DNA of 4,650 bases from the IMG/VR virus record IMGVR_UViG_2698536571_000005, one strand, 5' to 3'. The first letter of the stretch is position 1, and every line of letters begins with the position of its first letter. Below the pieces are notes generated by a model. That model was given only the letters and a program-made list of their open reading frames with translations. It made no database searches and was not told where the DNA came from. This document shows positions 4,166-4,561 of this stretch, piece after piece. Origin of the DNA: a virus (Duplodnaviria; Heunggongvirae; Uroviricota; Caudoviricetes). A program made the translations under genes and the position numbers.

Positions 4166-4561
4166 TTAATCATCATTAATATCTTTCATATTCAATTTGC
4201 AATTTTCGTAGGTCACTCCCGACTCGCCATTAACATTAACTCCAGCTCTGATATTCCCGTTTTCTTTTACATCTACAAAAAACTGGCCTCTTGGCATCTT
4301 GAACGCAAATGTAAAACCAACAGTATCTGAATCAAAATCATCATCTTTATATATTGGGATCAAAAATGTCATCGTCGCTGGTGATGCATTGTTTGCAAAA
4401 TCAAATACACCTATACTTTTGCCGAATTCATAAGAAGCTTTTCTCAATATAATCGCACCGCTGGCAGAAGGGGATGGGCACGATATCCTCAGTTGTCTGA
4501 ATCCATCTGTATCCAAGTCAACGTCATTATCTGCAGATGTTTTAACGGGTAATGACTCCAA
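4166..4561 (-). CDS. Hypothetical protein in AT-rich DNA; no family recognised
   Basis: 396-nt ORF in DNA that is about 27% GC by hand count of 4161-4220, where stop codons are frequent, so an open frame of this length suggests real coding. Start is uncertain: the only in-frame start upstream of Met64 is TTG at 4561-4559, inside the right repeat, with no obvious SD; in-frame stops sit just upstream. Confidence 0.35.
   Translation of the reverse strand: MESLPVKTSADNDVDLDTDGFRQLRISCPSPSASGAIILRKASYEFGKSIGVFDFANNASPATMTFLIPIYKDDDFDSDTVGFTFAFKMPRGQFFVDVKENGNIRAGVNVNGESGVTYENCKLNMKDINDD

Follow-up and report, generated by a model that had tools for sequence, protein, structure and literature searches.

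Background

The phage-encoded proteins Spackle of T4 and Sim of P1 both have a Sec leader and counter incoming phage in the periplasm; Spackle is helical and not a beta-barrel. The locus compared here with such systems is an open reading frame (ORF) of 131 amino acids at 4166..4561, on the minus strand of a 4,650-nucleotide window from the Caudoviricetes record IMGVR_UViG_2698536571_000005 of IMG/VR, together with the longer gene of which this ORF is a part. Beside the tape-measure gene of phage HK97 is gene 15, a superinfection-exclusion moron (PMC3594210). Morons are defined as extra DNA between genes that are adjacent in relatives, with deviating base composition, a terminator and a promoter of their own, and expression from the repressed prophage (Juhala et al. 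2000; Cumby et al. 2012, PMC3594210). The pseudogenisation driven by insertion sequences (IS) in Shigella (PMC8072062) agrees with what was found at this locus. The 131-aa ORF is an artefact of IS1 insertion, a dead gene fragment; as a whole, the locus is very probably the IS1-truncated remnant of a prophage accessory gene for an exported protein.

An IS1 insertion created the ORF

The ORF is present in the window with the position, length and TTG start reported in a first-pass annotation made from the sequence alone. The guanine-plus-cytosine (GC) contents counted by hand at that stage, about 27% at 4161-4220 and about 62% at 2281-2340, were accurate (26.7% and 61.7% when recomputed); the contrast they conveyed is real, but both samples are extreme, as the whole ORF has 37.6% GC and the phage block at 104-4119 has 54.5%. 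The ORF does begin inside the right repeat of the window, its TTG (4559-4561) falling in the arm at 4548-4650, and it does lack both an upstream ATG or GTG start and a Shine-Dalgarno sequence. These absences arise because the TTG and the first four codons are IS1 sequence, the true start having been split off by IS1; neither the identity of the repeat as IS1 nor the IS1 origin of the TTG had been recognised at first pass.

The two ends of the window (1-103 and 4548-4650) form a perfect inverted repeat of 103 nt with 100% identity. When 4100-4650 was compared by megablast with complete E. coli genomes, the last ~130 nt matched at tens of thousands of places, all of the listed ones under 'IS1 family transposase' annotations, and PF03400 (DDE_Tnp_IS1) is called on gene fragments at the ends of equivalent contigs. 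By sequence, the arms are the ends of two inverted copies of IS1. The right arm (4548..4650, minus strand) is the inverted-repeat end beside the 3' end of insB and contributes the TTG, the residues M-E-S-L and two bases of the P codon; on the same strand, insB ends with its stop codon 1 nt ahead of the TTG (window 4559-4565; 5982-5988 of the contig L013).

L013, an IMG/VR contig that holds the entire window plus its surroundings, contains the complete insertion: the tape-measure gene is followed by the first 110 nt of a gene for a 160-aa protein, a complete IS1 of 768 bp, and the remainder of the gene. This IS1 (L013 5231-5998) has terminal inverted repeats and ORFs of 91 aa and 167 aa in the insA/insB arrangement, and CGTTAAAAC flanks it on both sides (...agtaaCGTTAAAAC/GGTGATGC...IS1...CATTACC/CGTTAAAACatctg). 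The window retains one copy of this 9-bp target-site duplication at 4539..4547, which reads GTTTTAACG on the plus strand and CGTTAAAAC in gene orientation. The interrupted gene is collinear across IS1, with codons 1-37 in an upstream stub (MIKPF...ISNVKT, then into IS1) and codons 35-160 downstream, and a 37-aa 'partial' protein from Shigella sonnei that ends exactly at the point where the stub meets IS1 has been deposited. A simple transposition of IS1, with a 9-bp target duplication, has split the 483-nt gene after nucleotide 110. Extension of the sequence past position 4650 therefore yields a longer frame, cut by a complete IS1. The earlier suggestion that the ORF might be the variable C-terminal part of a larger protein whose upstream part lies outside the window was true as to the missing upstream part; the whole protein has only 160 aa, however, of which 34 codons are missing, and the ORF is not a variable domain of a big protein.

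The element that received the insertion is a decaying phiP27/SfV-type prophage of S. sonnei. The second IS1 end (1..103, plus strand) belongs to a copy in inverted orientation that is inserted in the baseplate J/gp47 gene; this copy is flanked on both sides by GGGGGCGCA in L013, and its 9-bp target duplication appears as TGCGCCCCC at 104-112 of the window. The baseplate J gene is intact (360 aa) in L001, a locus with an intact copy of the 160-aa gene, and its interruption by a second IS1 in the same prophage indicates that the prophage is decaying. A 224-aa ORF at 23..697 is likewise a truncated gene running into IS1.

The exact 131-aa product has been deposited as 'Uncharacterised protein [Shigella sonnei]' (CST24788.1) and occurs on at least 21 contigs, 20 of which are between 2 and 5 kb long, most being ~4.65 kb. 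One S. sonnei assembly (L040, GCA_043679925.1) is 100% identical to the window outside a run of undetermined bases (N). Because contigs of ~4.65 kb with IS1 ends recur in S. sonnei and L040 is identical, the window is recognised as a product of short-read assembly, the contig lying between two inverted IS1 copies of this species. The exact junction of IS1 and gene was absent from the 5,426 complete E. coli genomes searched, and a scan of genome contigs found only intact copies, in S. flexneri and E. coli. In the data examined, the IS1-split allele is specific to S. sonnei.

The parent gene is conserved

Positions 4100-4547 of the window match 11 complete E. coli/Shigella-like genomes at 97.5-100%, and the match ends exactly at the IS1 boundary. 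The matched region in those genomes is an annotated 483-nt coding sequence for a hypothetical protein, which in FDAARGOS_944 is WP_000594909.1 (160 aa). The 3' remnant in the window (4166..4547, minus strand) corresponds to nt 102-483 of this gene, that is, the last base of codon 34, codons 35-160 and the stop codon, and is 100% identical to L001 9067-9448. The full protein reads MIKPFLMTVAILTSCCAQAKILTNEEIVSRFISN/VKTSADN..., with codons 1-34 outside the window. Since the 34 lost codons carry the leader peptide, the product of the remnant would not be exportable, and the product of the IS1-fused ORF, even if translated, would remain cytoplasmic.

Genomes and viral contigs together provide about 30 loci with an open frame. 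Identity to the query is about 93-100%, 74% and 49% in the close subgroups, 35-38% in a further one and 23-28% among the most distant members. Ratios of nonsynonymous to synonymous substitution (dN/dS, Nei-Gojobori method) are 0.07-0.27 for deep pairs, for example 0.09 between the Shigella type and the Yersinia type and 0.19 between the Shigella type and the E. coli/Salmonella type. By this comparative evidence the intact parent gene is a real, selected gene; some 30 loci conserve the reading frame at 4166-4561 under purifying selection, and it is by no means a chance ORF. Of the two outcomes that the first-pass annotation had held would speak against its ORF, an absence of conservation and of coding-type substitution in relatives is contradicted by these data, whereas a pseudogene remnant is in effect what the window copy is, truncated as it is by IS1. 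The broad family alignment (A3) was too divergent for scans of loci, and a narrower one (A4) was used. Three large repeat proteins returned by the exhaustive search (P0018, P0021 and P0025) were ignored as compositional matches rich in Cys, Ser and Thr.

Three further observations concern individual copies of the parent gene. In the Yersinia enterocolitica homolog (L004 7975-8010), a one-base shift in a run of six A puts the native ATG and the opening leader residues (MKKTYLLVF...) out of frame, and the called protein begins MMLISCC with a stunted leader; this frameshift is either a homopolymer sequencing error or a second way in which the gene has been inactivated. P0007, a 100-aa Logan protein, is a chimeric ORF in which an unrelated N-terminus of 39 residues is joined to residues ~101 to 160 of the family protein, and it is probably the trace of a separate event, an IS insertion or a rearrangement, that disrupted the same gene at another position. 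FDAARGOS_944, designated 'E. coli', has the intact gene at 100% identity; an ipaH effector gene next to its prophage is frameshifted, and ISEc60 lies in the tail sheath gene (L001 1-174 and 13478-14668). It is therefore a Shigella/EIEC-like (enteroinvasive E. coli-like) strain in which the prophage copy is also decaying, at other sites.

A cassette between the tape-measure and DNA-circulation genes

The prophage that carries the intact 483-nt coding sequence has an HK97-type head and a Mu-type tail, and the genes on either side of the sequence are annotated as 'phage tail tape measure protein' and 'DNA circularization protein'. The downstream neighbour, a DNA circularization/circulation gene like that for Mu gp43 (2728..4119, minus strand; PF07157, DNA_circ_N), is the first gene of a baseplate block that fills the rest of the window. 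The gene is carried on a low-GC cassette of 601 bp, of which the window contains 4124..4547 (minus strand); past IS1 the cassette continues for ~177 bases to the last tape-measure codons. In phage phiP27, homology stops at L001 9626 and resumes at L001 9024 (position 4123 of the window), and 21 bp stand in place of the 601 bp (L001 9025-9625, window 4124 onward), so that only 15 nt separate the tape-measure stop from the DNA-circulation start. The flanks are nearly the same, with 97.9% identity at the 3' end of the tape-measure gene and 94.6% at the 5' end of the DNA-circulation gene. The 160-aa gene is absent from phiP27, SfIV and ST64B, and among 50,697 phage records only vB_EcoM-720R4 has it. 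The first-pass proposal of a foreign cargo gene is thus borne out insofar as the segment is compositionally foreign and the cassette is missing from the nearly identical phiP27; the window copy itself is not a complete gene.

GC content at third codon positions is 0.25-0.31 in all close subgroups, and the same GC dip is seen in the locus L046. Directly 3' of the stop codon in the window is a strong predicted intrinsic terminator (4138..4160, minus strand), consisting of AAGCCGCCAGAAATTGGCGGTTT and then a T-run, and a terminator of the same kind (hairpin plus T-run) with differing stem sequences follows the gene in other subgroups (the Yersinia locus, L046 and, by eye, L015). A scan of the coding strand upstream of the gene in L001, L015, L046 and L004, able to detect near-consensus promoters only, gave no match to the sigma-70 consensus. 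Judged by its sequence, the cassette agrees with the definition of a moron in its position, its GC content and its terminator, the promoter being the exception.

That subgroups only 38-50% identical occupy the same slot suggests that the gene has long been associated with Mu-type tail modules. Outside tail modules are the most distant homologs (25-28% identity), found in a Pantoea genome and in metagenomic assemblies (L035 740-1270, L036 1-452 and L037 2919-3413). They adjoin genes for IncFII RepA, ParA, a CI-like repressor, and MazE/PemK or Gp49/HTH toxin-antitoxin pairs on phage-plasmid-like contigs, with a terminator right after the gene and no GC dip. The conservation of the slot and the phage-plasmid homologs pull in opposite directions. 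Since phiP27 lacks the gene, the gene is dispensable for the tail; together with the phage-plasmid contexts, this absence makes a structural role unlikely. On present sequence comparisons, the intact gene is best described as a terminator-bounded, horizontally mobile cassette of temperate phages and phage-plasmids.

The encoded protein

The sole family match of the 160-aa protein is PHROG 5586, which it matches over its full length (E = 9.7e-89, residues 1-160 against profile positions 1-161) and which has no assigned function. Pfam (E<=10), NCBIfam and PADLOC-DB 2.0 (0 families at E<=10) were all negative, in agreement with the earlier statement that no family could be recognised, and a family-profile search of the PDB sequence library gave no match. 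The literature contained nothing on the accession numbers, on the PHROG identifier or on a characterised periplasmic beta-barrel exclusion protein.

The leader (MIKPFLMTVAILTSCCAQA/K) combines a positively charged n-region with a hydrophobic h-region and a putative AxA-type cleavage site, and has a mean hydropathy of ~2 over residues 1-15. A Sec-type leader is found in all subgroups, with aligned AxA/K-like sites (...NSFA/K, ...LALA/K, ...VSA/K and ...PALA/K); the intact protein is therefore predicted to be exported by the Sec system. Only the Shigella/E. coli and Yersinia members have a lipobox-like motif, LTSC and LISC respectively, and only that subgroup could therefore be lipidated. The acidic C-terminal region noted at first pass is weakly evident in a tail that ends DINDD, but the densest acidic patch (YKDDDFDSD) is internal and the whole mature protein is acidic, with an isoelectric point of 4.6. 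The mature part has two conserved cysteines: C57, within CP-x-x-SASG, and C150, close to the C-terminus.

Structure prediction followed by a Foldseek comparison, a route suggested at first pass, produced a model but no match. With 8 close sequences AlphaFold2 gave an unusable model, with a predicted local distance difference test score (pLDDT) of 41; distant relatives were then added, and with 13 diverse sequences pLDDT rose to 85.4, with a predicted template modelling score (pTM) of 0.79. In the model the leader is followed by a helix at 24-41 and then, between 52 and 152, by eight beta-strands that form a closed up-and-down barrel; a Foldseek search with it against PDB and BFVD returned nothing at E<=0.001. 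The remnant in the window is predicted to encode part of the N-terminal helix and all eight strands without the leader peptide. C57 follows strand beta1 and C150 is in beta8, and since these two strands are neighbours in the modelled barrel, a C57-C150 disulfide that closes the barrel is plausible.

Proposed function and alternatives

The mature protein may be a periplasmic or outer-membrane binding or inhibitor protein that serves the lysogen or an infected cell, superinfection exclusion being the likeliest role; this assignment, by analogy with HK97 gp15, T4 Spackle, P1 Sim and Cor/Llp, is a tentative one that we rate somewhat below an even chance. Exclusion would be directed at the part of the incoming tail that crosses the periplasm, or would block an envelope enzyme or receptor, and in S. 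sonnei the protective function would have been lost through IS1. More doubtful, though possible, is the broader proposal that PHROG 5586 and its distant relatives constitute an unrecognised class of exported, disulfide-stapled beta-barrels that block related phages or inhibit an envelope enzyme in the periplasm, and that are carried both at the tape-measure/DNA-circulation junction and in the maintenance regions of phage-plasmids.

The lipobox-like L-T-S-C or L-I-S-C in the leader would suit an outer-membrane lipoprotein of the Shigella/Yersinia subgroup that masks a phage receptor in the manner of Cor and Llp, which are phage lipoproteins encoded near tail genes. We consider this improbable, as the other subgroups have no such cysteine and their AxA/K signal-peptidase-I sites align with AQA/K in this subgroup; Cor and Llp, moreover, are only half as large as the protein. 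Neither resembles the protein in sequence, PHROG 5586 being the only significant match and a single phage record the only one matched; Cor is discussed in PMC3594210.

Another envelope function, that of a periplasmic lysozyme inhibitor of the MliC/PliC type acting as a host-protection or virulence factor or as an inhibitor of tail lysozyme, was considered because SASGA...YEFGK resembles the signatures of that family, an eight-stranded barrel with SxSGAxY and YxxxTKG loops at its lysozyme-binding face. Membership of MliC/PliC (PF09864) was rejected, and the reading is quite improbable: there is no Pfam match at E<=10, hhalign gave a probability of 2% against E. coli MliC (the sequence used having been verified against PDB 2f09), and the motif is at a non-equivalent place in the barrel.

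If the protein were a component or assembly factor of the Mu-type tail, encoded by a structural or late gene, one would expect the gene to keep its place between the tape-measure and DNA-circulation genes, as it does in three subgroups with identities as low as 38%, and to have no promoter of its own, and none was detected. That it should be so is very improbable, given that phiP27, with flanks 95-98% identical, has no such gene and neither do SfIV and ST64B, that an intrinsic terminator stands after the gene inside the tail operon, that the distant homologs are in regions of plasmid maintenance and immunity, and that the GC content is foreign. A Sec-type leader in every member would also be unexpected for a virion protein assembled in the cytoplasm; because of this leader, of the phage-plasmid contexts and of phiP27, where the gene is missing, the reading as a virion component was rejected.

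It is scarcely credible that the 131-aa ORF itself is a functional cargo gene read from its TTG into a cytoplasmic product: the frame is open, read-through from IS1 with translational coupling to insB is conceivable given the position of the insB stop codon and would give a leaderless fragment, and the allele recurs in many S. sonnei assemblies, yet its start and four codons are insertion-made IS1 sequence, it has no Shine-Dalgarno sequence, it lacks the leader present in every family member, its conserved cysteines suggest a disulfide that would form in the periplasm but not in a cytoplasmic product, its recurrence is explained by clonal descent of S. sonnei, and the second IS1 in baseplate J of the same prophage indicates decay.

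Other features of the window

The N-run at 1133-1418 is 286 nt long, and L040 has 260 nt there, inside a baseplate gene like that for Mu gp45; since the mask does not preserve the length, ORFs that cross it, such as a 191-aa ORF at 1090..1665, are unreliable. A perfect in-frame hexanucleotide repeat, (CCAGCA)x3.8, at 2161-2183 in a gp44-like baseplate gene encodes alternating Leu and Val, and its copy number varies among S. sonnei assemblies, with products of 362 or 360 aa; it is a small variable-number tandem repeat in a dead prophage gene. Another S. sonnei contig (L039, CXEP01000286.1, 4987 bp) has the same 131-aa ORF, and the remainder of it matches the window only in rearranged pieces, which suggests a different assembly, or a rearrangement of the prophage remnant in that isolate.

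Significance

The window copy is one more IS1-made pseudogene in the decaying prophages of S. sonnei, and its TTG start, missing Shine-Dalgarno sequence and start inside a repeat are fully explained; ORFs that start inside IS ends at the edges of contigs should be read as truncation products. The parent family is of more value: it is a small, conserved, predicted exported beta-barrel with a confident structural model, many enterobacterial prophages carry it at one fixed place next to the tape-measure gene, and it is found on phage-plasmids as well. Should it be an exclusion or inhibitor protein, prophage-encoded protection would gain a new fold and, in the periplasm, a new place of action.

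Comparison with known systems

A moron-like accessory gene of prophages and an IS pseudogene of Shigella are both known kinds of element; the parent family is uncharacterised, and its full-length membership of PHROG 5586 adds a name only. Unlike MliC/PliC (PF09864) and other small eight-stranded periplasmic barrels, from which it is separated by negative profile and Pfam comparisons, the protein has an extra N-terminal helix in its model. With T4 Spackle and P1 Sim it shares a predicted Sec leader, and its distant homologs are on phage-plasmid-like elements; it has no detectable sequence similarity to either, and exclusion by this family is proposed by analogy.

The cassette resembles morons of the HK97 gp15 type in being extra DNA between tail genes that are adjacent in a nearly identical phage, in its deviating GC content, in having its own terminator, in its place next to the tape-measure gene and in its small envelope-directed product. 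It differs in that it has no recognisable promoter of its own, that its product would be an exported soluble (or lipid-anchored) beta-barrel of 140 aa rather than a small inner-membrane protein, and that this product has no sequence relationship to gp15/YebO, the function suggested for it being drawn from analogy. As for the window copy, it is an ordinary case of an IS1 insertional pseudogene of Shigella and shows no differences from the type, with a complete IS1 of 768 bp, a 9-bp duplication, an AT-rich target, and contigs that break at the IS copies.
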